A stretch of 64,000 nt of DNA from an uncultured Muribaculaceae bacterium (GCA_964619545.1 CAZUED010000003.1:163-64162), one strand, 5' to 3'. Counted from the first letter of the stretch, positions 1 through 45,582 are shown. Notes: generated by a model from the sequence alone, not told the origin. Numbers and translations are program-made.

Positions 1-124
1 TTCGTTCTGGTGATTATTGAGCACCAGCCACCCTCTGATCCATTCCGAACCAGACAGGGAAACGATGTATCGCCGATGGTACTTTGGCTTAAGCCACGGA
101 AGAGTAGGTCGTCGCCAGAACGAA
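1..124 (+). rRNA. rrf: 5S ribosomal RNA; the 5' end may lie at or just before the window start
   Basis: Conserved 5S core visible by eye: ccctctgatccattccgaac...gaaacg...cgccgatggtac...agagtaggtcgtcgccag. A 5'/3' helix pairs tcgttctggtg with cgccagaacga. Confidence 0.8.
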
Positions 125-157
125 ATTCATAAAGACATGTAAAGCCGAGACAATGAA

Positions 158-190
158 ATACCGCCCCATTTTTGGGGCGTTTTTTTATCC
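158..190 (+). terminator. rho-independent terminator after the 5S rRNA
   Basis: GC hairpin ccgccccatttttggggcg followed by a T-run. Confidence 0.7.
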
Positions 191-474
191 GATGTCATTC
201 CTATCACAATAGTTATAAATTTTAGTTATAATTTTTACATGGTTCAAAATAATCCGGACTTAAATTTTCCAAATTATACGGCACAGAATATGCCGCCAAA
301 AAATCCATGTGAAACCTGTTTGTTTTGGGGAATCACATGTAATCAATTAATATGCTCGAATTTCCAAAAATATAAAGAAGATACGAAAAAATTTGCGCTG
401 AGCAATGAAATTTCTCCCTTTAACAATTTATATTGATGTGATATAATCAGATGAAAGTAGAGAAGGGGTTTTTT

Positions 475-2439
475 ATGAAAAGCCGGTTTTTAGCGTATTT
501 TGTGTTCGCATTTAGCGCTGTTTTTGTATTGCCTGGGGCGGCTGATCCAATTGCTGGATATGGCCAGACTGCGCCTGTTGCAACAACAAGCGCAACACAA
601 TCTCCGCGTGCAACAGGTCAGCGCGGCGGTCGTGCGACCCCCAGCCCCACTGCGGCAGCCAAAGTTGGCGCAACACAATCAGCGTCGCGTAGTGTGTCAT
701 CAAGAAGCGTTGGTGCGCGTGCAACCGCAACATCTGCGCAAAATATAGTTTCGCGTGGCACCAGTTCGCGTACAACAAGCAGTCGCGCGGTACGCGCTCG
801 TACAGCAAGTTCAGCAACAACGGCCAGGGTTTCGCTGACCGGTACCGCAATTCGCGGCAGCAGCACTTCGACCACAACACTTGCTAACAAGCTTTATACC
901 GGGACATATTCTAATATTATTGATCCTACAACCGGTTTAATTTCAGCAGATGCCTACAGCAACTGTCTTGAATCTTATTATGCTTGCATGGATGAAATTT
1001 GTACGGCGCGTAATCCAGGACAACGTCGTTGCGCGTGCGCCGGTCGAGTAAAAACTTTTGCTAATGTAGAAGCGCAATTGCAGACAGCACGTGAAGATTT
1101 ATTAAAAGTTTCGGGACAATTGTCATTATTAATCCTTACCAAGGGCAAGGATGTTACGTCTGCATTTACTTTGACCGAGTCAGAAAAAGTTTTGAATTGC
1201 GTTTCTTGGCGTGATGCCAAAACCGCTGGAAAGACCGATGAATGGTGCGAAAGTCATACCATGCTGTCTGGCACAACAAGTTGCACCAGCTATTCTGGGC
1301 CACCGGCGTTTGTAGCGGAATACTGCTCTAGTAACGATTTTGTTCTGGGTGGATCCGATTGGATGAATGTCTTGAATGGGGCGGATTCTGATATACTTTC
1401 CAGCTTGGAAACCTATGCCAGCACGATAAACCAAGTCAATGTTATTACCACAGATAACACAAACAGCTTGTTCAGTTCATTCATGAATGTCAGCGATATA
1501 GTTGGACAGCTGGACGGCACCGGGAATTTGTTCAGTTCAACAGAAACGGCGCCCGATACTTTGGCCCAGCTGTGGGGGTATAACTTGTTCCAGTACGCCC
1601 ATAACAATGTTTGCAATCGTGTTCTGAATTCTTGCTTTAACGGAATTTATGAAGCATGCGGAAGCAATAACGGAACAACTGGTCCATATAATTATAACAA
1701 TACAATAACTGTTAACAATGATGGATCGGACTTGAATTTTGTTGTTCCAGGATCGTCTTCTTCAACCAGCACGAATACAGCAACTTGCTTTGGTTATACA
1801 AGCAGCAGTGGCGATCCATATTCAACGTTGCGCCGGCCAGTGGCGGATTCGCGCCGCAGCATTTTGCAAAAGTATGCACTGGACGCAAATGCTGATTGCG
1901 ATACGTATGGTGAAGAGTTGAAAAAGCAAGCGACAAATATGGCATATCAAAAGATAGCCGCGACTCAGTACCTGCAGCAAAAGCGTCTTGAATTCGCAAA
2001 TGAAGATGAAACAAATACAACTGCTGAATTAGTTGCTGCCAAAGAGTCTTATCGCAGTTGCGTCAGCGAGGTTTATGATTGCTATGACCAACAGACACGG
2101 ACTAATCCAACCTGGACTGCGGCACGTGTAAAGAACTATTGCTCGCAAAGCGCGGAAGTTCCCAGCTGCTATGAAACGATGGTATGTGATCAAGAAGTTG
2201 GTCGTTTGATTGATGTCGCAGACAGCATAACATGCACAAGTACCCAAGATTGGGCAGCGAACACTTGCCGCAATGTTGTCAGATTGTCAGAAATCTTGAA
2301 TGGCACGGGCGCGGCAGCGGTTTCGACTGGTGCGAACTCGGCAGGTTTGCGCGAGTACTGCTTGCAAAGCACCCCAGGTGTATATGGCGAAGGCAGTATA
2401 CGTGATTTTGGCACCGGCTGGGGTCCAGGAAGTTTATAA
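475..2439 (+). CDS. large secreted Cys-rich protein, paralog A, function unknown
   Basis: Signal peptide MKSRFLAYFVFAFSAVFVLPGAADP. A Ser/Thr/Ala/Arg-rich low-complexity linker is followed by many Cys. Shares the motif C-x3-Y-x2-CMD-x2-C...RC-x-C-x2-R with the downstream ORF. RBS precedes the ATG at 475. Confidence 0.75.
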   Translation: MKSRFLAYFVFAFSAVFVLPGAADPIAGYGQTAPVATTSATQSPRATGQRGGRATPSPTAAAKVGATQSASRSVSSRSVGARATATSAQNIVSRGTSSRTTSSRAVRARTASSATTARVSLTGTAIRGSSTSTTTLANKLYTGTYSNIIDPTTGLISADAYSNCLESYYACMDEICTARNPGQRRCACAGRVKTFANVEAQLQTAREDLLKVSGQLSLLILTKGKDVTSAFTLTESEKVLNCVSWRDAKTAGKTDEWCESHTMLSGTTSCTSYSGPPAFVAEYCSSNDFVLGGSDWMNVLNGADSDILSSLETYASTINQVNVITTDNTNSLFSSFMNVSDIVGQLDGTGNLFSSTETAPDTLAQLWGYNLFQYAHNNVCNRVLNSCFNGIYEACGSNNGTTGPYNYNNTITVNNDGSDLNFVVPGSSSSTSTNTATCFGYTSSSGDPYSTLRRPVADSRRSILQKYALDANADCDTYGEELKKQATNMAYQKIAATQYLQQKRLEFANEDETNTTAELVAAKESYRSCVSEVYDCYDQQTRTNPTWTAARVKNYCSQSAEVPSCYETMVCDQEVGRLIDVADSITCTSTQDWAANTCRNVVRLSEILNGTGAAAVSTGANSAGLREYCLQSTPGVYGEGSIRDFGTGWGPGSL

Positions 2440-2460
2440 AGCACAAGGCGTAGATAATAA

Positions 2461-4704
2461 ATGAATAAAAATTCCAGATTTTGCAAAAAGTTTGGTGCAT
2501 GTTTATCTATGCCTTATGCTGTTTTTTTGATGTTCTGCATGGGTATAGCTGATGCAGCTGAAGTAAGTCGTGCACTTCCCGGAAAACAAGTTGCTATTTC
2601 AACGACATTCCAAAATCAGATACAATCCGAAGATGAAGTACCGGTGATAGAGCCCGGACAAGTTTCTGTACCCATATCGGTTTCACGTACGGCAGCATTG
2701 CCTGCACAAAGAAGTCAAAATGAAATAAGATCACGCACAGCGGCGACAGCTGTTCCACGCGATGCACTGAATGAAGCTGCGCGCCAAGTTGGACGCAGCG
2801 CCAAGGCCGAGGCAGCAAGTATGAATGCAACGGCACCAGTTCGTCGTGCGGGGATTTCTTTACGTCCGACAGCTGCCGAGGTTGGCGGCCGTGCAGCAGT
2901 TGTTACAGCTGGTACAACTACAGCTTCAAGTGTCAGCGCGGCAAGTCGTAGATTAACTTCACGTGCTGCAACTACAGGTCCCGATACAGCTGGGATTGAC
3001 GATACAATAGCTGTGACGGAATCATGCCAAGCGCAATATACCGACTGCATGGATCAGTTCTGCGCTGTCATTGATGCCAACCAAAAAAGATGCAGCTGCA
3101 GTAATCGTCTTTCTTCTTATTCGCGTGTAGAAACATCTGTAAAAGAAGCAAACAATCAGCTGAATGACGTCGCACAACGCATACGCTATGTGGGATTGTC
3201 TGCGGATGAAATTAGTGCGATTATGAGCGCGACCGAGGCTGAGATTGCATTACAAAATACCCGTGATACAACAGAATCACGGAATATGCTGGATGAAATT
3301 GAAAATCTTATTCGTTCGCCGGAAAATGTTGTTGCGCAAAGTTCTTCATCAACGATTGATTTGGACTTGAGTTTTGATGCAGAGGCTGATCCCATGGAGT
3401 TGTTTAATCTTTCCGGATCATCAACAGGGTCATTTTCTAATTTGCGTGGAACGGATTTGCTAAATGCCGCAAAAAAACGTTGCCAATCTGTGCTGACATC
3501 ATGCAAAGCCAAAGGTGCAAACGTCAATCAAATTACAGGTCGGTATGAAATAGAGATAGATAAAGACTGCATAACATATGAAAAAGGTCTGGAAAAGATG
3601 AATCAGACCTTGCGCACAAATGTTCGCAGTGCAACACAAATGTTGCAAAAGGCAAGACTTGCTGTGCTTGAAAATCATAACTCTTACGACGCCAAGGGTT
3701 GTGTTGGTGCTTTGGAACAATGCATGCACGACGAAATGGTTTGCGGAAGCGACTATTCTAAATGCCTTGATCCGACTAAACGCTTTATAGACGAAAGCGG
3801 AAAAGTAGTTTTGGGTCAAAATATTTCCATGATAAGAAACATTATGGCGAATTTTGATAATTCTATAATAGACGAGTCGTTTATAGGTTCAGCATGGGCA
3901 ATGTCGGGAATGTCTGGTTGTGATCAGGCACCAAATAATAATGGCAAATGCATTGTGAAGTATTTGTTGGGAAAAATCGGAATGGGCGAAGATAGCAGCT
4001 CTGGTTTGTGTCGCCCGGTTTTAGACAAGTGTCAAAAACAAACGTATGATGGCCGCGGCAAATATAATCCGAAAAACGCAATAGTCGTGGGCTATATACA
4101 GCGCGCAATGACTAATATTCGTGCTGCCCAGGAAAATATAATTTCAGATTACGCATCGACATGTATGGCGGAAATTGCAACTTGCTATTCCAAGCAGGTT
4201 ACGCAAATCAATGCATGGTCATCAAATGCCAACGTTCAGAATGTGTATTCAGTTCTGAAAGGCGCATGTCGTAATGTTGCACTGACATGCAGCTATGCGG
4301 TTTTCTCGGCCGACCAAACTGTGAATGGTTGCCCAATAACCAGCAATGATATGGCTGGAACCGATGGTGATAGGCAAAGCAAATGTATAGAAAACATTTC
4401 GGATATATTCTATCAATCAATGTTGTGTCCAGATTATTCGACATGGGTCCCGGCACAGACAGGTGCTATCGCAGGCACTATGTATCCTTATTCGCCCGAT
4501 ACACCGATCAGAGTGCATGTTAACGAGCGCTGTGTATGCCAATCAGGATATGGCGTAAATGCGGGTAGTTGTGAACAATGCCCGACCGGATACGCATTCA
4601 ATGCAAATTGCACTTATGCCAGTGCATCCCAAGGTTGTCCGATTATAGGATGCGGTTGCCCAGCGGGTACGACTTGGAATACGACTGCATCTGCGTGCCA
4701 ATAA
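2461..4704 (+). CDS. large secreted Cys-rich protein, paralog B, function unknown
   Basis: Hydrophobic N-terminus. An Ala/Thr/Ser/Arg-rich linker precedes the same CMD-containing Cys motif (ESCQAQYTDCMDQFCAVIDANQKRCSCSNR) and many further Cys. Tandem with paralog A. Confidence 0.75.
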   Translation: MNKNSRFCKKFGACLSMPYAVFLMFCMGIADAAEVSRALPGKQVAISTTFQNQIQSEDEVPVIEPGQVSVPISVSRTAALPAQRSQNEIRSRTAATAVPRDALNEAARQVGRSAKAEAASMNATAPVRRAGISLRPTAAEVGGRAAVVTAGTTTASSVSAASRRLTSRAATTGPDTAGIDDTIAVTESCQAQYTDCMDQFCAVIDANQKRCSCSNRLSSYSRVETSVKEANNQLNDVAQRIRYVGLSADEISAIMSATEAEIALQNTRDTTESRNMLDEIENLIRSPENVVAQSSSSTIDLDLSFDAEADPMELFNLSGSSTGSFSNLRGTDLLNAAKKRCQSVLTSCKAKGANVNQITGRYEIEIDKDCITYEKGLEKMNQTLRTNVRSATQMLQKARLAVLENHNSYDAKGCVGALEQCMHDEMVCGSDYSKCLDPTKRFIDESGKVVLGQNISMIRNIMANFDNSIIDESFIGSAWAMSGMSGCDQAPNNNGKCIVKYLLGKIGMGEDSSSGLCRPVLDKCQKQTYDGRGKYNPKNAIVVGYIQRAMTNIRAAQENIISDYASTCMAEIATCYSKQVTQINAWSSNANVQNVYSVLKGACRNVALTCSYAVFSADQTVNGCPITSNDMAGTDGDRQSKCIENISDIFYQSMLCPDYSTWVPAQTGAIAGTMYPYSPDTPIRVHVNERCVCQSGYGVNAGSCEQCPTGYAFNANCTYASASQGCPIIGCGCPAGTTWNTTASACQ

Positions 4705-4763
4705 AACCCTTGAAAATCGTGTGGTATTTGCTATGCTTTTCCTATTAAAAGGAAGAAAGCATA

Positions 4764-6308
4764 ATGAGTCAAGCATACGCCGTTCTGGCGCGAAAATACC
4801 GCAGTCAAGATTTTGCCAGTCTGATTGGACAGGACGTTCTTGTTAAAACCCTTACTACAGCAATCAATACAGACCGAATCGCGCATGCGTATATTTTTAC
4901 GGGCATTCGTGGAACTGGGAAAACCAGCACCGCTCGCATTCTGGCCAAGGCGCTGAATTGTTTAAGCGCAAATAAAGCAACCGCTGCCCCATGTGGTGTA
5001 TGTGAAAATTGCAAAGCGATTGCTGCCGGTCAGCATATTGATGTTTTGGAAATTGACGCAGCATCGCACACTGGTGTTGATAATATGCGCGACATTTTGG
5101 ATGCAGCCCAGTATCGTCCAACTAATGGCAGATACAAGGTTTACATTATCGACGAAGTGCATATGCTTTCAACCAGTGCATTTAATGCATTATTAAAAAC
5201 TCTGGAAGAGCCGCCCGAGCATGTTATTTTTATTCTGGCGACGACAGAAATACGAAAAGTTCCTGTAACTATTCTTTCCAGATGCCAACGATTTGATCTT
5301 GTACGTGTTTCAGTCGAAACACTTAAGAAACATTTTGCTTGGATTGCCCAGTCGGAAAAAGTGAATTTGACAGATGGTGCAAACGAATTGTTGTCGCGTG
5401 CAGCAGATGGTTCAGTTCGTGATGGTCTGTCTTTATTGGATCAAGCAATTGCGCAAACAGGCGGCAATGTGGATGAGGCTGCAGTGCTGTCCATGTTAAA
5501 ACGCGCGGACCGCGGCGTGGTCGTTGATTTTATGCAGACATTACTGTCGGGCGATGTTGCGGCCGCAATAGACAAGGCGGACTCTTTGTATGCTAATGGC
5601 GCGGATTTATCAATGTTGCTTACTGACATGATGGAATGGACGCACTGGGCGACTCGTATGCACCCCAGCTTGCATGCAGGTGATGCAGCTGCAATTCCAT
5701 ATACGGCTGATCAAAAAGAACAAATAAGAAAAATTAACGAAACGACTAGCCTGAATACTTTGTCGCGCATATGGCAAGTAATGGTTGCCAGTGTACCTGA
5801 AATGCAGACTGCTGGGAATCAAAAGCAATGCTTTGATATGCTGGTTGTTCGTTTAATGCGTGTTGCTGATATGCCGCCCATCAACGAATTAGTAAAGCAA
5901 ACAGCAACGTCTGCACCCCAAGCAAAACAGCAGATACATAAAGTTCCAGCAAAAGACAATGCATTTATAAAAATTTCAACGCCAATTGAACTTTCTGGCG
6001 CCCTTTCTGATGCCAAAGAACCTTTGTTAATGACTCATTGGGCAAATAATGTAGAGGTTGCAGAATTTTCAGATGGGCAAATTAAGTTTTTTGATCGTAA
6101 TGATGATCGTGATTTCCCTACAAAATTGCGTGATTTTTTACGTACCAAAACCGGCAAAGAATGGATTTTGGAAAAGATAGAACCAGAGCAGAAAAATCAG
6201 CCCATGCAAACCCCGACCGAGGCACAGCGCGCAGAACTTGAAGCCGATCCTGTGGTTGCAAACGCGCTGGATTTATTTGCTGGTGCCGAAATTATTTCGG
6301 TAAAATAA
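4764..6308 (+). CDS. dnaX: DNA polymerase III subunit gamma/tau
   Basis: Walker A GIRGTGKTSTARILAKALNC; a CGVCENC zinc module; clamp-loader box IIDEVHMLS; good RBS. Confidence 0.95.
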   Translation: MSQAYAVLARKYRSQDFASLIGQDVLVKTLTTAINTDRIAHAYIFTGIRGTGKTSTARILAKALNCLSANKATAAPCGVCENCKAIAAGQHIDVLEIDAASHTGVDNMRDILDAAQYRPTNGRYKVYIIDEVHMLSTSAFNALLKTLEEPPEHVIFILATTEIRKVPVTILSRCQRFDLVRVSVETLKKHFAWIAQSEKVNLTDGANELLSRAADGSVRDGLSLLDQAIAQTGGNVDEAAVLSMLKRADRGVVVDFMQTLLSGDVAAAIDKADSLYANGADLSMLLTDMMEWTHWATRMHPSLHAGDAAAIPYTADQKEQIRKINETTSLNTLSRIWQVMVASVPEMQTAGNQKQCFDMLVVRLMRVADMPPINELVKQTATSAPQAKQQIHKVPAKDNAFIKISTPIELSGALSDAKEPLLMTHWANNVEVAEFSDGQIKFFDRNDDRDFPTKLRDFLRTKTGKEWILEKIEPEQKNQPMQTPTEAQRAELEADPVVANALDLFAGAEIISVK

Positions 6309-6318
6309 GGAGAGAAAA

Positions 6319-6777
6319 ATGAGAGAGCAATGCGGACGCAGCCTGATTGAAATGCTTGGAGTGCTGGCCATCGCAGGTGTTATGACCGCTGGTGCAATTG
6401 CTATGTATAACATTGTGCGCACCCGACAGATTCGGATGGTGGCGACCCAAGATATGAAAACAATCGCAAATAATACAAAGCTGTTGTATGCCGCGCGCCG
6501 TGATTATACCGGCATATCCGCAGATTATTTGGTTAAGGCTGGCGCAATGCGCAATGAAAAATCTCCTTTGGCTGGCGCTCAGTTTTCTATTTCTGCAAGT
6601 CCAGGCCCCAAGGAATTCGCAATGGTTTTTGCAGAATTAAATTTTAATGATTGCTCTTGGCTTGCGACGCAGAATTTTGATTGGGCGGACAGAATTAGTG
6701 TGAATGGGTATTTTGAGTCCGCATCGACTTATTGTCGTCAGATGGATAAAAATGAAGTTGCGGTTTGGGTGAAATAA
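6319..6777 (+). CDS. type IV pilin / pseudopilin-like protein with a class III (prepilin) signal peptide
   Basis: N-terminus MREQCG|RSLIEMLGVLAIAGVMTAGAIAMY: a Gly, then Glu at +5 and a hydrophobic helix, typical of the prepilin peptidase cleavage and methylation motif. Size of 152 aa fits a type IVa pilin. Strong RBS. Confidence 0.65.
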   Translation: MREQCGRSLIEMLGVLAIAGVMTAGAIAMYNIVRTRQIRMVATQDMKTIANNTKLLYAARRDYTGISADYLVKAGAMRNEKSPLAGAQFSISASPGPKEFAMVFAELNFNDCSWLATQNFDWADRISVNGYFESASTYCRQMDKNEVAVWVK

Positions 6778-6826
6778 AAATTAAAGAGCAAAGAGTTCCA
6801 CGGTACATTAATATAAAAGATAAGCT

Positions 6827-7546
6827 ATGAAAGTAAAACTGAAATGTTTTTATAAAACTTCATTTGCAAATTGCTCGTTGCTCTTTTCTCTTTGCGCATT
6901 TTTAAGTGGTTGTGTCACATATCAAACGCCGCCGCGCAATGATTGGCCGATTATTTTACGTGGCGCGACCTTCTCTGAAATGACCGATACTATGAAAATT
7001 GCAAAGCGACCCGTTTTTATTGGTGGTGGTGGAAAAATAATAAACAAAGATGCCGGGCCAGAAAATATAAGTCAATATGGTAAAGAGCCCACGCCAACAG
7101 ACATTAGTCCAGCAGTATTAAAGTATATGGCTTCGCTGGAATATGAGTTATATGATTCTTTATTAAAACCGGGAATCCAGGTTCAGCGCGTGGGCACCGA
7201 TGTTGTTTTATTGCTGACACGTGATTCGTTTATGTATTTGGACGCACCAGAAGTTTCGGATGATGGTGAAGATACATTGAAAATCGTTGCAAAAATACTG
7301 AAAAAATATGATGCTACGTTTATGGAAATTTCGGGTTATACCGATGCAACAATAGACAAGAATGCGGCATCTGCACTTTCGTTGGATATGGCGCAAAGGG
7401 TTGGAATTTTTATGGCAAACCATGATATAAACCCTGCACGTATGTTTATTGTTGGTCGGGGCGCTGCACGTCCTATTGCGGCCCAAGATGATACAGGTCG
7501 GCGCATGAATCGGCGCGTTGAAATCAGATTGTCGCCAGCAAGATAG
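6827..7546 (+). CDS. OmpA-family peptidoglycan-associated lipoprotein
   Basis: Lipobox FLSGC. C-terminal OmpA-like domain (GYTDATIDKNAASALSLDMAQRVGIFMANHDINPARMFIVGRGAARPIAAQDDTGRRMNRRVEI). Confidence 0.8.
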   Translation: MKVKLKCFYKTSFANCSLLFSLCAFLSGCVTYQTPPRNDWPIILRGATFSEMTDTMKIAKRPVFIGGGGKIINKDAGPENISQYGKEPTPTDISPAVLKYMASLEYELYDSLLKPGIQVQRVGTDVVLLLTRDSFMYLDAPEVSDDGEDTLKIVAKILKKYDATFMEISGYTDATIDKNAASALSLDMAQRVGIFMANHDINPARMFIVGRGAARPIAAQDDTGRRMNRRVEIRLSPAR

Positions 7547-7613
7547 CAAATTTTCTGATTGAAATTTATTTTTTATGGATTACAATTAGCAAAGAAAACA
7601 AAAAGGAAGGAAA

Positions 7614-8273
7614 ATGAAAAACCAAAAACCGCTTCCAAAAAAAGCGAAAAACTACAAGAAAATTGGTCTTATCGCTGCTGTGGTTGTCGCCGTGGCTGCA
7701 TTGGGATTTTGGGCTGTTCGGTATTTTACCGCACCGATTTCAATTGAAAAAGCAATCGAGCATGTTTCAACTGAAGCGGTAAGCGGCAGCGACCTGCGTA
7801 TTGCGGTCGTACGTATGGATGCAATTCAGACCCAAGCAAAAGTTTTGGCCGATTTGCATAAACAACGCGAATCTTATGAGAATAAGCTGCGTGATGAATT
7901 GTCAAATCGTCAGAAAGAGCTAGAAAATGAAAAGGCAGAAATAGAAAAATCGCAAGATGTTCTTTCACGTGAAGCTTTACAAAAACGCGTTTCTGATTAT
8001 CAGCAGAAAGTTTCAAAGTTGCAGCAAGATTTGACTACTCGCGCCCAGGCAATAGATGCATCTTTCCAGAAAGCATTGGCCAAGGTACAAAGCGAACATC
8101 TGGATCCGATAATTGACGCTGTTATTACAAAAAAGAACTTGTCATTGGTTATTGATGGCCGTTTGGCTCGCACAGGCGGAGAAATCAAGAATCTGGACAT
8201 TACGGATGACATAGTGATTGCTTTGGATAAAAGAATCCCAAGCGTCAAAATGGAAACTCCAAAAGGGTTCTAA
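7614..8273 (+). CDS. skp: Skp/OmpH-family periplasmic chaperone
   Basis: N-terminal TM/signal, long coiled-coil region, and position immediately upstream of lpxD-fabZ, the conserved skp-lpxD-fabZ context. Confidence 0.7.
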   Translation: MKNQKPLPKKAKNYKKIGLIAAVVVAVAALGFWAVRYFTAPISIEKAIEHVSTEAVSGSDLRIAVVRMDAIQTQAKVLADLHKQRESYENKLRDELSNRQKELENEKAEIEKSQDVLSREALQKRVSDYQQKVSKLQQDLTTRAQAIDASFQKALAKVQSEHLDPIIDAVITKKNLSLVIDGRLARTGGEIKNLDITDDIVIALDKRIPSVKMETPKGF

Positions 8274-8285
8274 AATAGTTCTGAA

Positions 8286-8318
8286 TTAAATCGCCGCAAT
8301 CGCGGCGATTTTTTTAAT
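8286..8318 (+). terminator. rho-independent terminator
   Basis: Hairpin tcgccgcaatcgcggcga followed by a T-run. Confidence 0.7.
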
Positions 8319-8403
8319 ATAAAAATGTTTTGTAAAAAACTTTGATTTTGTTGATTTTGCCTTTCTACTTTTGCCTTTTGTTTTTTTGTGTTATAATTCA
8401 CCT

Positions 8404-9147
8404 ATGAAAAAGTTTTTTGCTTCATTGTTTGTTATTAGTTTTTCATTGCTGTTCATGGCGCCTGTGCGTGCATCAGATGCCCCGGATTTCAAGATTTACG
8501 AAGACGTTTCCATAAATAATCAGCCAAAATCCATGCCAGAAATAGAGGAATTATTTCTTAATCCCCGTGCCCAGACAGAAAATCTTTGGGCTGCCGGAAA
8601 AAATTCAATGTTAGAAATTTCTTATACTGGTTGCCCATTTCATACAATTCGTGAATGCCTGATTTGGAAGCGTAAACCAGTAATAATGGAAACAATCCCA
8701 TTGCCAACGCGGCATATTAAAAAAACTGATGATTATCAAACCGCATTGGTAAAAAGGTACGAGGCTCTGATGCAGGCAGCCAGATCTTGTTGCACTGCCG
8801 GCATGGAGAACAAGTTGATAAATTCTGGCGCATCCGCTGGTTTGATTTATAAATTTATGGTTGATGATGCAAACTTTTACGGATTTGGGGATAGATGCTT
8901 GATGATAACAGATGAAGAACTGCAAGAAAACTATTCTGGGACTGCAACCGCAAGGGCGGTGATGGGTGTTCGTGATACATGCCTGTGTCAGCGGCGGGAT
9001 TATTTTGATGCACTACTGGCGCCATTTGACGATTTTCCAGACGAAGAGTATAATTATACTTATCAAGATGGATTGAAGCGCGAGGTAAATGTTTCAATCA
9101 GCAATGATGTACGTGCAGTCAAAGAAATTTTGACACGCTGCCTATAA
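8404..9147 (+). CDS. hypothetical secreted Cys-containing protein inserted between skp and lpxD
   Basis: Signal peptide MKKFFASLFVISFSLLFMAPVRA; no recognisable family. Confidence 0.55.
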   Translation: MKKFFASLFVISFSLLFMAPVRASDAPDFKIYEDVSINNQPKSMPEIEELFLNPRAQTENLWAAGKNSMLEISYTGCPFHTIRECLIWKRKPVIMETIPLPTRHIKKTDDYQTALVKRYEALMQAARSCCTAGMENKLINSGASAGLIYKFMVDDANFYGFGDRCLMITDEELQENYSGTATARAVMGVRDTCLCQRRDYFDALLAPFDDFPDEEYNYTYQDGLKREVNVSISNDVRAVKEILTRCL

Positions 9148-9215
9148 AAAAGTTAATAATCACTACATTTCCAATAAACTTGCACTGACAATTTCTGTGT
9201 GGTATTATTTCAATC

Positions 9216-10265
9216 ATGAAAAAACTAATACAATTTTTGTTCGGCCAATGTGCTGAAAAAACTACTGCCGGTGCGCTGGCTAAGAAATTTGGCATGGAGC
9301 TGCATGGTAATGCTTCGGTTCCAGTTCGTGGTGTTGCGCCTATTGCGGATGCAAAGCCCGGTGACTTGGCATTCTATTCAACCGAGAGAAATTCCGAAGC
9401 ATTCAAGATTTTACCGATTGAAACATTAAAAAATACCAAGGCATCGGTAATATTGGTACAAAAAGAAAATGTGAAATTTGCCCCAAAATGTGCAACTTTG
9501 CTGCTGACCGACAGCCCTCGCGCAAACATTATAAAAATCATAGGTGAAATTTATAAAGAAAAACCGCGACTGGGTGTTCATTGGGCTGCTAATATAGAGC
9601 ATGGGGTATTTTTCCGTAAACGCCGAAGTGTTTATGTTAGTCAGTTTGCAACTATTGAAAAGGGTGCGGTGATAGAACAGGGGGTGAAAATTTATCCGGG
9701 GGCTTTCATCGGTCGCGGTGTGGTGCTGGGGACTGGAACAATCGTTCATACTGGTGCACATATTGAAAATGCCACCATTGGTGCGAATTGTGTAATTCAC
9801 AGCGGTGCTGTTATTGGCAAGGAAGGATTTGGATATACGCGTCAAAATGGTAAGAATGTATTTATTCCGCACGTTGGTCGCGTGGTTATCGGGGATCGCG
9901 TTTCTGTTGGTGCAAATTCTTGCATAGATCGCGGAATGATGACAGATACAACCATTGGGGCTGGAACAAAGATTGATAACTTGATTCAGATTGCGCATGG
10001 CGTTGTTATAGGTCAAGAGTGTTTTTTAGCCGCAGGCGTTGGTCTGGCCGGTGGGGTTGTAATTGGCGACAGGGCAATGATTGGCGGTCATGTTGGAATT
10101 GCCAATGGTGTTAAAGTTGGTGATGATGCTGAAATAGGCGCGCAAAGTGGTGTTTTTCGCGATATTCCAGCGGGCGAGCGTCATATGGGCTATCCCGCAG
10201 TTCCGGGGATGGAATTTATGCGCGCTCATGCATGGGTCAAGAAAAACATGAGGGATAAGAAATGA
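9216..10265 (+). CDS. lpxD: UDP-3-O-(3-hydroxyacyl)glucosamine N-acyltransferase
   Basis: Left-handed beta-helix hexapeptide repeats (GVVLGTGTIVHTGAHIENATIGANCVIHSGAVIG...). Position between skp and fabZ. Confidence 0.9.
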   Translation: MKKLIQFLFGQCAEKTTAGALAKKFGMELHGNASVPVRGVAPIADAKPGDLAFYSTERNSEAFKILPIETLKNTKASVILVQKENVKFAPKCATLLLTDSPRANIIKIIGEIYKEKPRLGVHWAANIEHGVFFRKRRSVYVSQFATIEKGAVIEQGVKIYPGAFIGRGVVLGTGTIVHTGAHIENATIGANCVIHSGAVIGKEGFGYTRQNGKNVFIPHVGRVVIGDRVSVGANSCIDRGMMTDTTIGAGTKIDNLIQIAHGVVIGQECFLAAGVGLAGGVVIGDRAMIGGHVGIANGVKVGDDAEIGAQSGVFRDIPAGERHMGYPAVPGMEFMRAHAWVKKNMRDKK

Positions 10266-10690
10266 TGGTAGATACAAAGGGTGTAGAAGCTGTAATTCCA
10301 CATCGCGGCAATATGAGATTGGTGGATGAAATTCGCGAATTTAATGAAATCAGTGGTGTTGGTATAAAACATGTCAGGGATGATGAATTTTGGTGTGCCG
10401 GACATTTTCCCGGAAATCCGATAATGCCTGGTGTTTTACAGGTCGAGGCCTTGGCGCAAACTGCATGCTTTATTGTGTTCAAGCAAATGGGTGCAACAGG
10501 TAAGGACACTTTGGGCTATTTTACCACTATGGAAAAAATCAGATTTTCGCACATGGTAAAACCTGGCGATACGCTTGAATTGCATGTAGAAATTTTGGCA
10601 AAAAAATTAAACATGTATAAATTTCATGGAATTGCAATGGTTGGCGGGAAAAAAGTTTCCGAGGCTACATTTTCCGCAATCATGAATTAA
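10262..10690 (+). CDS. fabZ: 3-hydroxyacyl-ACP dehydratase
   Basis: Hotdog-fold motif HFPGNPIMPGVLQVEALAQ; 4-nt overlap with lpxD. Confidence 0.9.
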   Translation: MMVDTKGVEAVIPHRGNMRLVDEIREFNEISGVGIKHVRDDEFWCAGHFPGNPIMPGVLQVEALAQTACFIVFKQMGATGKDTLGYFTTMEKIRFSHMVKPGDTLELHVEILAKKLNMYKFHGIAMVGGKKVSEATFSAIMN

Positions 10691-10789
10691 AATCGCTGTA
10701 CGTGCCTTTATCGGCAGTTAAATACTTGTATAAAGCATCGGGCGTCCATATAAATGGCGCCCGAATTTTTAATACGTGTTTTGCGAAAG

Positions 10790-11000
10790 AAACACAGGTT
10801 ATGTTAGAGCATAAGTTATAGGGCATAACGCATAGATATTTTTTACCTTGTGCCTTATGCTCTAAAAACACCCATCCATTTTGTTCCAGGATTTTTAGGT
10901 CGCGGGTTTGCAGCAGTATAAAGTTTATTTTCCCTGAACCGACTTGTATCATAGTGTATCTATGTCTTATGCCTTTAGCCTTATGCTCTAAAACGATTGC
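10790..11000. repeat. non-coding cluster of short direct and inverted repeats (unit ~cttatgctctaa / ttagagcataag)
   Basis: atgttagagcataag at ~10801; gccttatgctctaaaa at ~10852 and again at ~10976; surrounding partial copies (gcataacgcatagat, gtatctatgtcttatgcc). Confidence 0.6.
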
Positions 11001-11097
11001 GCAGTGTCGAAATTTTCGGCAAAAAATGCGTGGCATTATTTTCCTGGTATTATTTGTAAATCCGATAAGCATGAAAATCTCCGATTTTTATTTAATT

Positions 11098-11209
11098 TTC
11101 AAAGTGCAATTGTGGTGTCGGCTTCACCGACAACCTATAAATAATTATTTTACCTGTGAGCAACGCGAACACATTAATTGCACATTGCACTTTGCTAATT
11201 GCTCATTAG
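11098..11209. repeat. left copy of a ~110-bp repeat element, forming an inverted pair with 18612-18722
   Basis: caattgtggtgtcggcttcaccga...ataattatt...tgtgagcaacgcgaacacattaattgcac matches the reverse complement of 18620-18704 at about 80%. The copy carries caaagtgcaat / attgcactttg termini and repeated (g)caattg sub-motifs. Confidence 0.8.
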
Positions 11210-11616
11210 TTTTCCAGCCATCCTTTGATTTTTGCAGCTTGCGCGATAGTTTGCATTGCATCATTCCACAGGGCAGCTTTGGCATTTTCTGACCATTCAT
11301 GCTGATGTGGAGCGCGCCGCAAGTCTCCAAATTCTTTCAAGACTTCCAGTTGTTTGGGCGTTAGCTTGCCGGCCAGGTAAAGCCGAGTGATAAGAGTTTC
11401 AACATCAATAGCTTCACAAGGATATGGATTTCGTGCCACTGGTCTTCCGATACGCATACGCGCAATGCTGGCAGATGAAAGCGCATCCTTTTGTCGGCAA
11501 GTTAAAAACCAAAACCACATTTGATCGGCGTCTTGAAATTTTCTTTCTGGTGCGTCAAAAGCCGTAGAAGGTATATTTTTTTGTTTTAAGTTGGCGTTCA
11601 TTTTTTCTCTCTCCAT
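11206..11616 (-). CDS. hypothetical protein inside the inverted-repeat-bounded cassette
   Basis: 136-aa ORF with no recognisable motif. Its stop abuts the left inverted repeat, and it has its own upstream region. Confidence 0.45.
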   Translation of the reverse strand: MEREKMNANLKQKNIPSTAFDAPERKFQDADQMWFWFLTCRQKDALSSASIARMRIGRPVARNPYPCEAIDVETLITRLYLAGKLTPKQLEVLKEFGDLRRAPHQHEWSENAKAALWNDAMQTIAQAAKIKGWLEN

Positions 11617-11739
11617 TTTACCCCGTATAATTACTGGGTATGCATTCCTACACTAAAAATAATTGAATTATATCAAATGATACAACTACAAATAGATACT
11701 GCGGTTAGGTTTCTGACATTTTTTGTTTTTTGATAAATT

Positions 11740-11768
11740 AAAAAAATTCGCCACTTGGGCGAATCGGA
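11740..11768 (-). terminator. rho-independent terminator downstream of the Cys-rich gene
   Basis: Hairpin ttcgccacttgggcgaa with an A-run on the plus strand (T-run on the minus strand). Confidence 0.6.
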
Positions 11769-11790
11769 GAATTGTAAATACTAAATAAAA

Positions 11791-13938
11791 TTATCTATCT
11801 TGACCGATTTTGGTAGATGTTCCGGATTTCAGGTTGTCATTGGCTATACGAAGTTGTACTTGGTATGCGTTTATACAATCTGTCATACTGGAATTAGTCA
11901 TAGAATCGCCACATTTTTCAAATTGAGATTCAGATAATTTCAATGTTGTTGACATTCCTTTCAGCAAGTCAGAATCAAATTTAAGCTGCTTTCTGGCATC
12001 TGTTTTATTTGATGCGGAACGTATTACGCTCAAGTTGTTATTCAAGCAAGAAATCATATCTGATGTGCTGTAAACCTCATTACAATCACGAGCACCATTT
12101 AATCTTACATTACCTTTAGAAGATTTGCTTGCACTAGTAGAAGAATCATCAGTAGTATCGCCGCCAGCGGCCTGTAATTTTGATACCAGAATGGATTTCT
12201 CCATCTGAGTCTTTAACCGCTTCATAGTAACGTCCAAAAAGTCATACTGACGTTTCATCTGTTGAGTAATAATTGTCGTTTTCAATGCGATTGTATCCGC
12301 CATCATTTGTTTGTCAGCGGCCGAGGTTGGATTTTTTGTACTTCCAATGTTATAAGCATGGGTGCTGCACAAAGCGATGGCTGAATTGATATAATCATTT
12401 CCGCTGTCTTCTTTGCACCCGTTATCAGCTGTGCCAATGGAAAGAATTGCGTCCAGATTGTTGTTTTTGACACACAGATTGCGATCTGGCAAACGTCTTA
12501 GCTGTGCCAAATTACTTATAACAGCTAACTGATCAGAATTTGTTGCACACCATTTTATTGCGTCGGCTGCAGATTCTTCGCCGCGAATTACACTTGGTGC
12601 GTCCTGGGCAATTATTCTGCGCAAAGTTTCTATATCAATCGTCGATTGCTTTTTGCGATTTTTAAATAACACGGAATTATCAATTGCGTCAGATGCACAT
12701 GCAACGCGAATCCCGCCAGAACTGCCCGCATCCATATCCAGCCAGTTTTGTTGAATGTCCTCTTGATTATTTAACATCTTTAACAAAGTGCAATGGGGCT
12801 GTTGAGATTTTACTCGGCGGTTCCCCTGAGCATCATTTTCGTATGCTATAGGCCAGTATCCGCGGCCGGTTTTTGTATCATAATCGCAAGTTATGCTTGT
12901 CTTATCATCAATTTTTTCAGTTTGATTTTGAGAACATGTCTCGCACATATATTGCCCCCAGACATTGCAAGAGCCATTCAGCATCATGTAAATATCTGTT
13001 ATATCAACGCCCAAAGATTGCGCTAAAACCAACGCATCATACAACTCGTCCAAAACTGCATCATACGGATCAAAGAATTTATTTGCCTTATCCTTGAACG
13101 CTTTGACTCGCCGAGGACCCTGGCAATTATTTCCATTAGAATCACAACGCGCATAATCAAAAACATTTTGCATTGTGTTTTTTAAATCTTTCATCGCAAC
13201 ATCAGAATTTTCAAGCTGGGTCAGTATTTGACCACCAATTTGTTCGCGTGCCAAAACATCTGCCGATACACCCGCATTGACTGCATTAGTAATTGTTTTA
13301 TCGGGTGCTGATGCGCTTGCTGCTTGGGCCGCGGCCTGTGCTTGCTGGGCCGCCAGTTGTTTTTGCTCTTCCAATGCTTGCTGAACAGCCGCGGCGGATT
13401 GAGCAGATTGTTCTTGCATCTGTTGCTGCATCTGCATCATCTGCGCTTGCATTTGTTCTATCTGAGTGTTTGATTGCGCCGCTGCTGCATTTGCAGCCTG
13501 CGTTGTTGCAGCATTTTGCGCCTCGGTTGCTTTTGCAATAGCGGCACTTACCATCTGTGCCGCCAATGTTTGGATTAAATCGTCACCATATTGCTCGCAC
13601 GAAGGATTACTTTTCACGCAACCTTTCACAATCGGAAGCGCCAATTCCATGGTTGTGCAGCCCGCGCACTTTGGCTGGGCGCAACGCAAAATAAGTGAAT
13701 TACAATTTCCAAAATCTGCAACCGGCCTTTGTTGCCCCAGTGGATTAGGGTTTATCGCGGCATTCCACTGATTGTTGTTCAATGCGCCGGCACTGCCGGT
13801 AAATACAGTTCTGTTACCTGAAATTCCGCCAGAATTTGCAAAAGAAGGCCCTGGTCCGCCGATAGGACTGTCGCCATAGGCAGTCCCCAGTGCAAAGCAG
13901 GCGGTACAAACAGATAAAAATCTGATTAAAATCTTCAT
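11791..13938 (-). CDS. large secreted Cys-rich, Gln/Ala-rich coiled-coil protein; last gene of the VirB8/9/10-like operon
   Basis: Signal peptide MKILIRFLSVCTACFALGTAYG. Low-complexity run AQAAAQAASASAPDK with QQMQ repeats, and many Cys (CAQPKCAGC, CETCSQNQ). Starts 67 nt downstream of the VirB10-like stop. Confidence 0.7.
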   Translation of the reverse strand: MKILIRFLSVCTACFALGTAYGDSPIGGPGPSFANSGGISGNRTVFTGSAGALNNNQWNAAINPNPLGQQRPVADFGNCNSLILRCAQPKCAGCTTMELALPIVKGCVKSNPSCEQYGDDLIQTLAAQMVSAAIAKATEAQNAATTQAANAAAAQSNTQIEQMQAQMMQMQQQMQEQSAQSAAAVQQALEEQKQLAAQQAQAAAQAASASAPDKTITNAVNAGVSADVLAREQIGGQILTQLENSDVAMKDLKNTMQNVFDYARCDSNGNNCQGPRRVKAFKDKANKFFDPYDAVLDELYDALVLAQSLGVDITDIYMMLNGSCNVWGQYMCETCSQNQTEKIDDKTSITCDYDTKTGRGYWPIAYENDAQGNRRVKSQQPHCTLLKMLNNQEDIQQNWLDMDAGSSGGIRVACASDAIDNSVLFKNRKKQSTIDIETLRRIIAQDAPSVIRGEESAADAIKWCATNSDQLAVISNLAQLRRLPDRNLCVKNNNLDAILSIGTADNGCKEDSGNDYINSAIALCSTHAYNIGSTKNPTSAADKQMMADTIALKTTIITQQMKRQYDFLDVTMKRLKTQMEKSILVSKLQAAGGDTTDDSSTSASKSSKGNVRLNGARDCNEVYSTSDMISCLNNNLSVIRSASNKTDARKQLKFDSDLLKGMSTTLKLSESQFEKCGDSMTNSSMTDCINAYQVQLRIANDNLKSGTSTKIGQDR

Positions 13939-14005
13939 ATTCTCTCTTGAAGCAAGTTTATCATAAAATGCGAGGAAATGCAAGCCTCCCTTTAACAAGT
14001 GGAAG

Positions 14006-16300
14006 CTAAATTATTGGGGGAAAGCAATCACCGCCAGCTGCTGGACAGCAGTTGAATCCTTGGCTACCCATGTCTGTATAAACCTCGCCCGTGCAACAGC
14101 CGTTTAAGTCTGGCGATGTACCATCTTCGCAGGTCAGTGCCGTCGTGGTGGTGGTTGCGGGTGGTGTTTCTTTGGCAAATGGATTTTTTATTGTACCGTC
14201 CGCATTGTATTGCAGGCCCAAAACTTGCTCGTTATATTCTTTTGTTCCCTTAGTTAATTGCTGGCCATTGGTTCCGACAATACCGGTTTGCTGCTGGTTA
14301 TTCCAAATAGCCTGCTGTTGGGCATTATTTATCGCTTGATACTGAATTGCTTTACAATATGCAACAACGGTACGATAGTCATAGCCAGCCTCGGAAATAG
14401 TTTGTGCTGTTACACCCGCACTCAGCTGTCCATTAGTGCCGCAGTATTTCTGTATATCAAATCCGCGAACTTGTCCAACCCATGATGCATCATCATAATT
14501 TGGTATGGCTTCGGACGCTTTATGAGAAACATATTGCGAAGGAGTCAAATTGCAATTTTCAAGCCCATTCACCTTGTCGCAGAAGTTCACAATTAAATCC
14601 TTTGGCGAATAAACCGTTATGCGCGTACCAGCGGCAATAGAAAATGGAGGAACCGTGTTGTCCAGCATATCAACCATTAATTTTTGCGCAACTCTGTTCC
14701 ATGTTGAAATAATTTCATTTTTTGCCAGCTCGGACGAGCGAACTTGACCACTTTGTGTAACCGTATTGTTATCCAGATCAATTTGATTTACGAACTTGTC
14801 TGAAATTGGCGCAATCAAATTAACAGCGGCAGGCACAACTGCCGTTATCATCGGCATTATGAATTGCTCCATATAATCTGTGCTGCCGTGACCTGGAACG
14901 CCAACGCGACCTTGGCTGTCGCCAGCAAAGGGCTCGTCCCCGGCAAAGCTGAATTCAACTCCGTCCGGTCTAACAAAGCGATACCATTTGATTTGCATAC
15001 GACCGATGGCTTTATACGGACCCGGCATTTCACCAGTCAAATAACCCAACATCAATGTTCCGGTCGGAATTATTATAGTGCGTCCGTTATCAGAATAGAC
15101 ATGTCTATCAACTGTTGCCTGAACTGGCAACATGGATTGACGCTCTATCTTTGCATCTGCACGTATTTCATTTACGATTGTCGCAGGAATAGGCTTGTAC
15201 TGGCGCAGAACAAAAGTGCGGTCATAGGGCTCGGTCGATATAAATGCATCGCCCGCAGATGAAGGTACCAGGTTACTTTCTGGTTTATATGCAAATGCTG
15301 GATTTATCTCTGACAAACGTTTTGCACCACCCGCAGCTCTGGGTAATTCTGCCGCTGCTGCATTTACTTGTCTTGCTCGATTTTGTACGCGTGCGTTCGC
15401 CGGATTGGACAATACAGGAACATTCGCGCTTGATGCAATAAATCCGATTCGATCAAAGTCAGAGCCTATTTTTCTGCTGGGATTTTTAAGATCGGTAATA
15501 AATCCGGTATCCAAATTATATTCACCCAGTGGGCTGGTGCAGTCCAAGTCAGAAAAAGGATGAAAAAGATAATGTCCACCTTGGGGACGTATCCATCCGA
15601 TTTGCTTTCCATATGCGTCATAGCCGCCGAATGCAAATTCATAGCAGCGCTCGGTATTTAATGCTGCTGTAGTTACTGGCGCAGGCAAATTTTCTGTTGC
15701 AAATTTTGGCGCAAGGGTTTCGACCGCCTCGGCCACAGGATTAATTTCAGGGGCAGTCAAAACAGGTTCTGGTTCTGGCAATTGCACTGGTTTTTGTGGT
15801 TCTACTTTTTTTGTAGATAAAGCAACAGGAATTTCAGCAGTTTGTGCCATTTTGGCCTCGGCACTGGCGGGGTAATACTCAATAAGTACTTTAATGCCGG
15901 TTGGTTCCAAGTCTGCAGCAGGCGTCCAAGTTAATTCTGCACTGCAAGGAATGCCAAGTGTAATTTCGCCCATATTTGTACAGGTGGTATCTATGCTTAA
16001 TCCATCAATTTTTTGGGATAGTTTTACGCTGGGAATCATTGCGACTGCATTCGAAGAAATTTTAATAGTCTGTGTCTGTTTTTCGCCAACTGGAATGTTT
16101 TGCCATGCGATCTCAGATGGATCCATGGTCAGCTCCAGAACTGGTTTTGATTCGGACTTTGGTTTATCCTTGGAATCGCGACCCATCAGAATAACCAGCA
16201 AAACAACGACTACCAAAAAAGCAGCGAACATCACGATCCACAGCACATGCCGTGGCATGGACTTTTTTACATCGCTGATAGTGGTTGTTATCATCGCCAA
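14006..16300 (-). CDS. VirB10/TrbI/TraB-like T4SS core protein with an extended Gln-rich, Cys-rich C-terminal tail
   Basis: N-terminal TM (HVLWIVMFAAFLVVVVLLVILMG), a Pro-rich linker (PEPEPVLTAPEINPV), then a VirB10-like barrel region (GRTIIIPTGTLMLGYLTGEMPGPYKAIGRMQIKWYRFVRPDGVEF...AAGTRITVY). About 250 extra residues follow, ending CEDGTSPDLNGCCTG...NCCPAAGGDCF. Confidence 0.75.
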   Translation of the reverse strand: MAMITTTISDVKKSMPRHVLWIVMFAAFLVVVVLLVILMGRDSKDKPKSESKPVLELTMDPSEIAWQNIPVGEKQTQTIKISSNAVAMIPSVKLSQKIDGLSIDTTCTNMGEITLGIPCSAELTWTPAADLEPTGIKVLIEYYPASAEAKMAQTAEIPVALSTKKVEPQKPVQLPEPEPVLTAPEINPVAEAVETLAPKFATENLPAPVTTAALNTERCYEFAFGGYDAYGKQIGWIRPQGGHYLFHPFSDLDCTSPLGEYNLDTGFITDLKNPSRKIGSDFDRIGFIASSANVPVLSNPANARVQNRARQVNAAAAELPRAAGGAKRLSEINPAFAYKPESNLVPSSAGDAFISTEPYDRTFVLRQYKPIPATIVNEIRADAKIERQSMLPVQATVDRHVYSDNGRTIIIPTGTLMLGYLTGEMPGPYKAIGRMQIKWYRFVRPDGVEFSFAGDEPFAGDSQGRVGVPGHGSTDYMEQFIMPMITAVVPAAVNLIAPISDKFVNQIDLDNNTVTQSGQVRSSELAKNEIISTWNRVAQKLMVDMLDNTVPPFSIAAGTRITVYSPKDLIVNFCDKVNGLENCNLTPSQYVSHKASEAIPNYDDASWVGQVRGFDIQKYCGTNGQLSAGVTAQTISEAGYDYRTVVAYCKAIQYQAINNAQQQAIWNNQQQTGIVGTNGQQLTKGTKEYNEQVLGLQYNADGTIKNPFAKETPPATTTTTALTCEDGTSPDLNGCCTGEVYTDMGSQGFNCCPAAGGDCFPPII

Positions 16301-16321
16301 CGCAGACTCCTGAGCCTTTTA

Positions 16322-17797: not shown

Positions 17798-17876
17798 TTC
17801 ACATCCTTCCTAATTTTTTTCTCAAGCGAATTCAGCTGTGACATTTGCCACTTGCCGTTTGCTATTTAAGTTTATG

Positions 17877-18530: not shown

Positions 18531-18611
18531 TTTCTTCAGAATTCTCCCTTCTTTGCGCGATTGTAGTAAATTTCCAGATTACTATGCAAGGGAAAAGTTC
18601 AATTTTCAATT

Positions 18612-18722
18612 ATCAAAGTGCAATTAACGTGTTCGCTGCGCTCACAATTAAATAATTATAAAAGCATCGGTGAATGCCGACACCACAATTGCTAATTGAA
18701 TTTTGTACATTGCACATTAAAC
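18612..18722. repeat. right copy of the ~110-bp repeat element, in inverted orientation relative to 11098-11209
   Basis: Reverse complement reads caattgtggtgtcggcattcaccga...ataattatt...tgtgagcgcagcgaacacgttaattgcactttga, aligning with the left copy. Confidence 0.8.
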
Positions 18723-45570: not shown

Positions 45571-45582
45571 AGGCGCGAACTG

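Follow-up and report, generated by a model that had tools for sequence, protein, structure and literature searches.

What are the large cysteine-rich proteins encoded side by side at the start of a 64,000-nucleotide (nt) stretch of DNA deposited as uncultured Muribaculaceae bacterium (GCA_964619545.1, CAZUED010000003.1:163-64162), and do they form one family with a third such protein encoded farther along it, next to genes of a type IV secretion system (T4SS)? The whole stretch is referred to here as the window, the two tandem proteins as A and B, and the third one as C. An earlier, sequence-only reading of the window had described A and B as one family of large secreted Cys-rich proteins, had recognized no known family in them, and had counted C as a third member. 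We find that A and B belong to an orphan superfamily of mostly helical, exported, disulphide-rich proteins without known relatives. They constitute a protein family that is new, though its kind is broadly familiar.

The relationship between A and B is apparent both from direct comparison and from comparison of profiles. The two proteins align in BLASTP with 26% identity (E 3e-12), while hhalign, using 29-member alignments, gave a probability of 98% (E 1e-13) over some 400 columns; when the comparison was confined to the N-terminal domains, the probability was again 98%. By these alignments A and B are paralogues, and their earlier description as one family is correct. Both proteins carry the same Cys framework, C-x3-Y-x2-CMD-x2-C-x9-[RK]RC-x-C, exactly in the form in which it had been written by the sequence-only reading (A, CLESYYACMDEICTARNPGQRRCACAGR; B, CQAQYTDCMDQFCAVIDANQKRCSCSNR). 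The pair and its upstream region are laid out as follows (residue numbers refer to the respective protein).

6-120: 5S rRNA gene, at the start of the window
162-179: terminator-like hairpin, 3' of the 5S rRNA gene
420-447, plus strand: promoter-like site 5' of A (TTAACA, 16-nt spacer, TG-n-TATAAT; extended -10)
475-2439, plus strand: protein A, 654 amino acids (aa), from ORF and translation
A, residues ~1-23: signal peptide
A, residues ~24-155: basic R/S/T/A-rich linker
A, residues ~157-245 (nt 943-1209): conserved Cys ('CMD') domain
A, residues 246-654: Cys-rich core
2461-4704, plus strand: protein B, 747 aa, paralogue of A by alignment
B, residues ~1-31: signal peptide
B, residues 32-177: linker, containing a conserved 30-residue Arg motif (residues 121-150)
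B, residues 178-270 (nt 2992-3270): CMD domain
B, residues 271-655: helical Cys-rich core
B, residues 656-747 (4426-4701, plus strand): C-terminal beta-rich Cys module (DSSP strands at 660-706 in the AlphaFold2 model)

Translation of the 64,000-nt window confirmed the open reading frames (ORFs) of A, B and C at their coordinates, and the 5S rRNA gene was located ahead of the tandem pair, as had been proposed. Gene A has a GAAGGGG Shine-Dalgarno sequence ahead of its ATG at 475, and the gap between A and B is 21 nt. The promoter-like site agrees with 11 of 12 consensus positions and has the top score across positions 1-19000, being a consensus match only. In each of A, B and C, the N-terminal signal peptide is the sole strongly hydrophobic segment, which bears out the signal peptides assigned earlier to A and B. 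The same holds true for the Ser/Thr/Ala/Arg-rich linker: residues 25-150 of A contain 10% R, 17% S, 19% T and 17% A and have a net charge of +14, and the linker of B resembles it in composition. Cys makes up 3.4-4.7% of the residues in A, B and C, compared with 0.9% for the products of 16 other window genes. The earlier claim that each of A and B has more than 20 further Cys is right for B, where 27 of the 32 Cys of the mature protein lie outside the framework, and wrong for A, which has 22 Cys in total and 17 outside it. The codon adaptation and GC content of the A, B and C genes match those of their neighbours and point neither to horizontal transfer nor to very high expression.

The extent of the family was assessed by an exhaustive hidden Markov model (HMM) search of the A profile against 1.84 billion representative sequences, which returned 309 proteins at E values up to 1e-3. 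About 40 of these, at E 1e-30 or better, appear to be the A family; the remaining matches align to profile positions ~20-275, which correspond to the linker and the N-terminal Cys domain. For the families brought together in this way we coined the name CMD-domain superfamily. They span ~650-1370 aa, and the signal peptide, the linker and the CMD motif are common to all of them. The signature of the superfamily (a signal peptide, a basic R/S/T/A linker and C-x3-[YF]-x2-C-[ML]-D-x2-C-x9-[RK]-R-C-x-C) is present in A, in B and in every full-length representative listed, and is absent from C. The groups differ in length and in the sequence of the motif.

Group A: ~650-800 aa, some to ~1200 aa; CMESYYxCMDEICTARNPGQRRCAC
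Group B: ~700-870 aa; CQxQYNDCMDQFCAVIDANQKRCSC
Group D: ~1000-1100 aa; CMDEFCANKD..KRCAC
Group E: ~700-800 aa; CMDNFCNVLDDNQGRCSC
Group F: ~640-830 aa; CMDQFCAKANETYRRC

A single 184-kb contig holds members of groups A, B and E. Considering this co-occurrence and the five motif groups, the pair is therefore part of a multi-paralogue superfamily: judged from their motifs, the N-terminal module is common to five or more sequence groups, and genomes are predicted to contain several paralogues each. Among the 8000 candidates scored, the homologues of each of A, B and C make up at least 1000 clusters (at 90% identity). The homologues are all unnamed or 'hypothetical' and come from metagenome-assembled genomes (MAGs) of uncultured gut Alphaproteobacteria or 'Rickettsiales'; the earlier failure to recognize a known family in A and B was justified.

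In a genome collection with one representative of each species, relatives of B were confirmed at 324 places. These include several Candidatus Enterousia MAGs and also circular genomes of 716,531 and 958,618 bp, and all the contigs examined that carry the superfamily look like relatives of Ca. Enterousia (order Rs-D84). So far, the superfamily appears to be restricted to small-genome gut Alphaproteobacteria related to Ca. Enterousia. Contigs with alphaproteobacterial gene content are found under the titles 'uncultured Muribaculaceae bacterium', 'Bacteroides fragilis' and 'Lachnospiraceae bacterium' (loci L007, L008, L009, L023, L028 and L045, and protein P0355), and these titles probably stem from mislabelled or mis-binned MAGs. 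The order Rs-D84, to which Ca. Enterousia belongs, is a gut lineage with genomes below 1 Mb (~0.7-1 Mb), widespread in the guts of humans, livestock, birds and termites; it has no respiration and almost no biosynthesis, is metabolically dependent with a lifestyle presumed to rely on a partner, encodes many hypothetical membrane and surface proteins, and acquires metabolites by a route that is not known (PMC12306168). Our literature search found this one genomic description of the lineage and nothing on the proteins discussed here.

The Cys residues are nearly all invariant. In A, 21 of the 22 are invariant among 29 homologues; in B, 29 of the 32 Cys of the mature protein are present in at least 82% of the homologues, and 28 of those in at least 94%; in C, which has 22 Cys in the mature protein, 15 are present in at least 96% of the homologues and 21 in at least 76%. 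The number of Cys in the mature protein is even in 118 of 118 homologues of A, 115 of 119 of B and 93 of 94 of C (326 of 331 in total), although these homologues are phylogenetically related, so that independent events are fewer than the raw proportions suggest. The counts themselves range from 20 to 57. Even parity over such widely varying counts therefore indicates that Cys are gained and lost pairwise, as disulphides predict. In addition, C-x6-C pairs are enriched in all three proteins (in B, 9 observed against 1.4 expected). The Cys of A and B are thus presumably engaged in disulphide bonds, and the two proteins most likely need disulphide formation outside the cytoplasm, an expectation of the sequence-only reading that near-invariance and parity uphold.

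A possible catalyst of this reaction, to which the same reading had drawn attention, is encoded elsewhere in the window.

36238-36744, plus strand: CPHC thioredoxin-fold protein, exported and membrane-anchored (signal peptide and anchor read from the translation)

Its signal peptide and small thioredoxin fold were both confirmed. Its thioredoxin/glutaredoxin-like domain measures ~90 residues, and its C-terminal membrane anchor has KKKK as the last residues. The protein gives weak matches to glutaredoxin, thioredoxin and DSBA, of which only Glutaredoxin passes the Pfam cut-off; the DSBA match scores 17 bits against a cut-off of 25.6 bits, and the domain is too short for the helical insert of DsbA. 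It is a candidate for a minimal, membrane-tethered, DsbA-like oxidant of the Cys-rich proteins.

Conservation is unevenly distributed along A and B. The CMD domain is the best-conserved segment, being 71-77% identical to the window protein without insertions or deletions and of fixed length (89 residues in A, with 77% identity, and 93 in B). The helical core is 64% identical among homologues, and the linker is variable save for the 30-residue Arg motif of B (58%). The most variable segment is the C-terminal module of B, with 37% identity and lengths from 48 to 325 aa. The A and B of the window are 47-55% identical to Enterousia proteins, and gene order is also shared. In a comparison with the Enterousia clade that took in other genes, identity is 48-55% for A and B, 45-50% for OmpA, 71% for DnaX and 72% for LpxD; A and B thus diverge at about the rate of OmpA and more rapidly than DnaX or LpxD.

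The structure of B was predicted with AlphaFold2 from an 83-sequence alignment. The overall confidence of the model is moderate, with a mean predicted local distance difference test (pLDDT) score of 66.9 and a predicted template modelling (pTM) score of 0.47. Residues 1-177 are disordered, the CMD region is modelled as a helix-loop-helix (pLDDT ~84 at its start), and residues 330-747, mostly at pLDDT 80-94, consist mainly of long helices such as 355-404 and 540-584. The model of C (pLDDT 73.5) comprises a Cys-rich helical N-terminal domain, a helical region of ~150 residues, an alpha/beta domain and a C-terminal helical module. No beta-barrel is predicted in either model. Sequence-profile searches of the PDB with A, B and C gave nothing at E <0.1, and a Foldseek search of solved structures gave no match for the C model at E <3. 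Scans of A, B, C and the small neighbouring ORFs against Pfam, NCBIfam, PHROGs and PADLOC returned only low-complexity noise, and scans of the individual members of the B and C alignments returned only PF07699 (B) and Q-rich TFIIA noise (C).

PF07699 (Ephrin_rec_like) is matched by five of the 29 B homologues, with a best E value of 3.5e-6. The window B itself has no Pfam match, and its profile finds EphA2 in the PDB at E 0.22. The C-terminal module of B resembles the ephrin-receptor-like and TNFR-like repeats of this family in being beta-rich and Cys-dense; however, it covers just ~90 of the 747 residues, and the window B stays below significance.

Comparison with other known Cys-rich systems gave likenesses of design and no identity. 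TraN, the mating-pair stabilizer of F-type systems, is a large (~600 aa) Sec-exported protein with ~22 conserved Cys that is associated with T4SS. A and C, with 22 Cys each in the mature protein, nearly all of them invariant, and with export signals, are reminiscent of it, but this feature is not specific. No match to TraN (PF06986) was obtained by hmmscan against Pfam at E values up to 1 for A, B and C, or up to 0.01 for 29 B and 24 C homologues; the window ORFs scanned included no F-type tra genes, the neighbours being VirB8, CagX/VirB9, TrbI/VirB10 and housekeeping genes. As there is no Pfam match and the predicted fold is mainly alpha-helical, identity with TraN was rejected. The chlamydial Cys-rich proteins OmcB and OmcA offer a resemblance of concept only, as abundant components of the envelope that are cross-linked by disulphides in a bacterium dependent on its host. 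OmcB consists of beta-rich repeats, in contrast to the helices predicted for A, B and C, which have no Pfam or NCBIfam match, and the taxa are unrelated; both sequence and predicted fold speak against identity. The likeness to TraN and OmcB suggested by the sequence-only reading is thus not sustained, considering that there are no Pfam matches and that the folds are mainly alpha-helical without a beta-barrel. Autotransporters (type V secretion) were likewise rejected, again for want of a Pfam match and because the C-terminus is a small Cys-rich beta module in B and helical in C, not a barrel. Helicobacter Hcp and Legionella EnhC are exported, helical, disulphide-bridged proteins of host-associated bacteria; the likeness to these Sel1-repeat proteins lies in being exported, helical and Cys-rich, and an identity fails by sequence and by predicted fold. 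Proteins of the CHCH fold (twin Cx9C, e.g. COA6) and RAMP ectodomains are among the closest known disulphide-stapled helical hairpins.

The third protein, C, is encoded on the opposite strand together with T4SS genes.

17877-18530, minus strand: VirB8-like (Pfam/NCBIfam)
16322-17797, minus strand: VirB9/CagX-like (Pfam/NCBIfam)
14006-16300, minus strand: VirB10/TrbI-like (Pfam/NCBIfam)
11791-13938, minus strand: protein C, 715 aa (ORF)
C, residues 1-22: signal peptide
C, residues 76-114: N-terminal Cys cluster
C, residues 115-262: long Gln/Ala-rich helical region
C, residues 263-500: alpha/beta domain
C, residues 504-715 (11794-12429, minus strand): C-terminal helical module

The signal peptide, the long Gln/Ala-rich helix and the many Cys that had been ascribed to C are all present. 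So is the predicted operon: C starts 67 nt past the stop codon of the VirB10-like gene, with which it shares the strand, the only terminator-like site comes after C, and from this arrangement C is co-transcribed with virB8-10 in the window clade. The term 'T4SS-operon cargo' is not supported, as the adjacency of C and VirB10 is confined to a close clade (it was found in the window and in L006, L007, L009 and L010, and not in L004, L005, L011 and L053). In relatives, the C-terminal 212 residues of C have their counterpart in a secreted protein of 238 aa with a gene of its own (47% identity, E 2e-55; L006, 11714-12430). Therefore, either the C of the window is a fused form of two adjacent genes or the relatives are split; both forms are common among homologues.

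That A, B and C are one family, with C a highly diverged CMD member, could be argued from their same overall design, from the enrichment of Cx6C in all three, and from the first three Cys of mature C, which are spaced C-x6-C-x4-C as in A and B, a coincidence that arises with a probability of ~0.02 when C is shuffled. Against this, C shows no relation to A or B in BLASTP (E >1); hhalign gave 1.8% for A and C and 15% for B and C, the latter over the signal peptide only, and 0.1-0.2% when the N-terminal domains of A or B were compared with C. C has neither the CMD signature nor the RC-x-C motif nor the Arg-rich linker, and its profile matches no A or B ORF in 89 loci. A single family of three is accordingly very improbable, and the three-member family of the sequence-only reading is not supported, since C fails to share a conserved Cys framework with the pair, the outcome which that reading had itself named as refuting it: by these comparisons C is a separate orphan family, similarly built. 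We take the shared spacing to reflect a common building principle, that of heptad-spaced Cys on helices, or to be at most a hint, and do not count it as evidence of membership.

Other observations in this region concern Cys-rich and T4SS-like proteins. The VirB10/TrbI-like protein (764 aa) has a short Cys-dense tail, ...TALTCEDGTSPDLNGCCTGEVYTDMGSQGFNCCPAAGGDCFPPII, which is unusual for VirB10 and in keeping with the Cys-rich theme of the region, and the CagX/VirB9-like protein shows a weak C-terminal match to the peptidoglycan-binding SPOR domain (E 4.9e-4, just below the Pfam cut-off). In L004, a 1035-aa secreted protein with 41 Cys (5057-8164) is encoded upstream of the C homologue; it has no CMD motif, contains the repeat C-x3-Y-x-S-C-x6-C-x4-FE-x-C internally, and carries hydrophobic segments at its C-terminal end. 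Several families of exported Cys-rich proteins, unrelated to one another, are encoded in these genomes. Farther along the window, 43040-47805 (plus strand) encodes BamA (five POTRA domains and Omp85), followed by a weakly VirB8-like ORF (45583-46275, E 5.3e-4) and two ORFs without family, which may represent a second, scattered T4SS cluster of the Rickettsiales type. A 218-aa ORF at 53075-53731 (minus strand), with a weak Terminase_6N match (E 2.6e-5), may be a prophage remnant.

The genomic setting of A and B differs between clades. In the window clade, the gene order is rRNA, A, B, dnaX, prepilin-like, OmpA, Skp, a 258-aa Cys protein, LpxD and FabZ, followed on the opposite strand by two small ORFs, C, VirB10, VirB9 and VirB8. 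In the Enterousia clade it is PPDK, PagL-like, A, B, DnaQ and UvrD, and then five tandem paralogous polytopic membrane proteins. Envelope genes are thus found near the pair in both clades (OmpA, Skp and LpxD in the former, the PagL-like gene in the latter), and A and B were never adjacent to T4SS genes in the loci examined. Pairing was judged on 72 loci with sufficient upstream sequence. In 42 of them (including L012, where open reading frames overlap) the gene immediately upstream of B is A, and in three A lies elsewhere within 10 kb of B, while in 27 there is no A within 10 kb; the pairing is therefore not obligatory. Nevertheless, the pair is kept while the flanking genes change between clades, which suggests functional coupling of A and B.

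Some of the neighbouring genes deserve mention in their own right. The small protein encoded directly after dnaX (6319-6777, plus strand) has a prepilin-type methylation motif (N_methyl, E 1.3e-3) and is conserved in this position in relatives. Between skp (OmpH) and lpxD, 8404-9147 (plus strand) encodes a secreted protein of ~250 aa with 9 Cys, which has no family match and is conserved in relatives; its ~500-aa relatives adjoin C homologues in L004 and L053. The five tandem paralogues of the Enterousia clade (14789-21383 in L028, and the same region in ~40 loci of this clade) are 400-480 aa long, with 6-7 predicted membrane spans each, and stand beside A-B-DnaQ-UvrD. Their identification as VirB6/TrbL was rejected, no Pfam match being obtained at E values up to 5; their layout recalls the VirB6 paralogue arrays of Rickettsiales, a likeness that is unproven.

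What, then, might A and B do? The reading that we put forward, tentatively and at somewhat less than an even chance, is that they are Sec-exported, disulphide-stapled structural or adhesive components of the envelope or surface, which probably act together. Both proteins would be exported through the Sec pathway with a cleavable signal peptide and oxidized outside the cytoplasm, possibly by the membrane-anchored CPHC protein, so as to have essentially all of their Cys in disulphides. The products would then consist, in this order, of a basic disordered tether, the conserved CMD domain and a disulphide-stapled, mainly alpha-helical core, to which B would add a variable Cys-rich beta module of the ephrin-receptor/TNFR type. 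Tether and CMD domain could serve anchoring or assembly, possibly on anionic polymers of the envelope; in B it would be the variable C-terminus that is exposed, and A and B would act together as a hetero-complex. It is in this sense that we infer a location in the envelope or at the surface, an A-B complex and a role in the contact with a partner cell. Several points weigh against the proposal. Neither A nor B has a homologue of known function, and a search for features that would place them at the surface identified neither an outer-membrane anchor nor a lipobox nor a secretion route of their own. The 27 loci where B has no A nearby show that the pairing is not obligatory, the 64% conservation of the core is unlike that of fast-evolving adhesins, and the confidence of the B model is moderate. 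Finally, as regards re-oxidation, neither DsbB nor VKOR was found among the window ORFs scanned, and the lineage is reported to be without respiratory chains (PMC12306168).

A and B might instead be a strictly periplasmic scaffold, i.e. long helical, disulphide-braced spacers or chaperone-like factors that stabilize the envelope of a reduced genome and have no role at the surface; we regard this as somewhat unlikely. It appears decidedly unlikely that they belong to the T4SS, either as its periplasmic substrates or as extracellular adhesin or pilus-tip components that contact partner cells. In favour of this are the position of C behind virB8-virB9-virB10, with its short gap and its terminator-like site, and the recurrence of this order in the four related loci named above, as well as the VirB/VirD4-type genes carried by these genomes and a D-family member ~5 kb from VirB10 and VirB9 in L087. 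Sec signal peptides are compatible with a two-step, periplasm-first T4SS route; pertussis toxin is a periplasmic substrate of this kind, exported by Ptl. It is C, a protein of another family, that stands beside the VirB genes, and then only in the close clade. The most improbable of the readings is that the conserved Cys bind metals or cofactors (Zn, Fe-S), as in redox or electron-transfer proteins. Many of the Cys are invariant and include close C-x-C and C-x4-C motifs, the organism is an anaerobe, and no obvious DsbB is encoded among the window ORFs scanned. However, even Cys parity in nearly all of the homologues is the signature of paired disulphides, and neither His/Cys metal-site motifs nor families that bind cofactors were detected by Pfam and NCBIfam scans. 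Proteins loaded with a cofactor usually leave the cytoplasm in the folded state, via the twin-arginine translocation (Tat) pathway, whereas the signal peptides found here have no twin-arginine motif; moreover, some B homologues contain the ephrin-receptor-like module, which is disulphide-laddered in known proteins. On the grounds of parity, signal peptides and missing metal-site motifs, an identity as metal-cluster proteins was rejected.

The reading of A and B as envelope or surface components can be carried one step further. The CMD superfamily, perhaps together with C, could form a disulphide-braced, helical, lineage-specific surface structure, an interface for attachment or feeding by which these metabolically dependent bacteria dock onto partner cells, maybe in conjunction with their VirB-type system. 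We consider this unlikely as it stands; if true, bacterial cell contact would be known to employ an apparatus of a further, novel kind, with a fold previously unseen.

The definition of the superfamily supplies a diagnostic motif, domain boundaries and, in the Cys parity, evidence for disulphides, and it corrects the membership of the T4SS-adjacent protein C in the family of A and B. In genomes as small as these, several conserved 2-kb genes for exported, disulphide-rich proteins are a large investment, and the A/B superfamily provides obvious candidates for the envelope or partner-contact machinery of the lineage.

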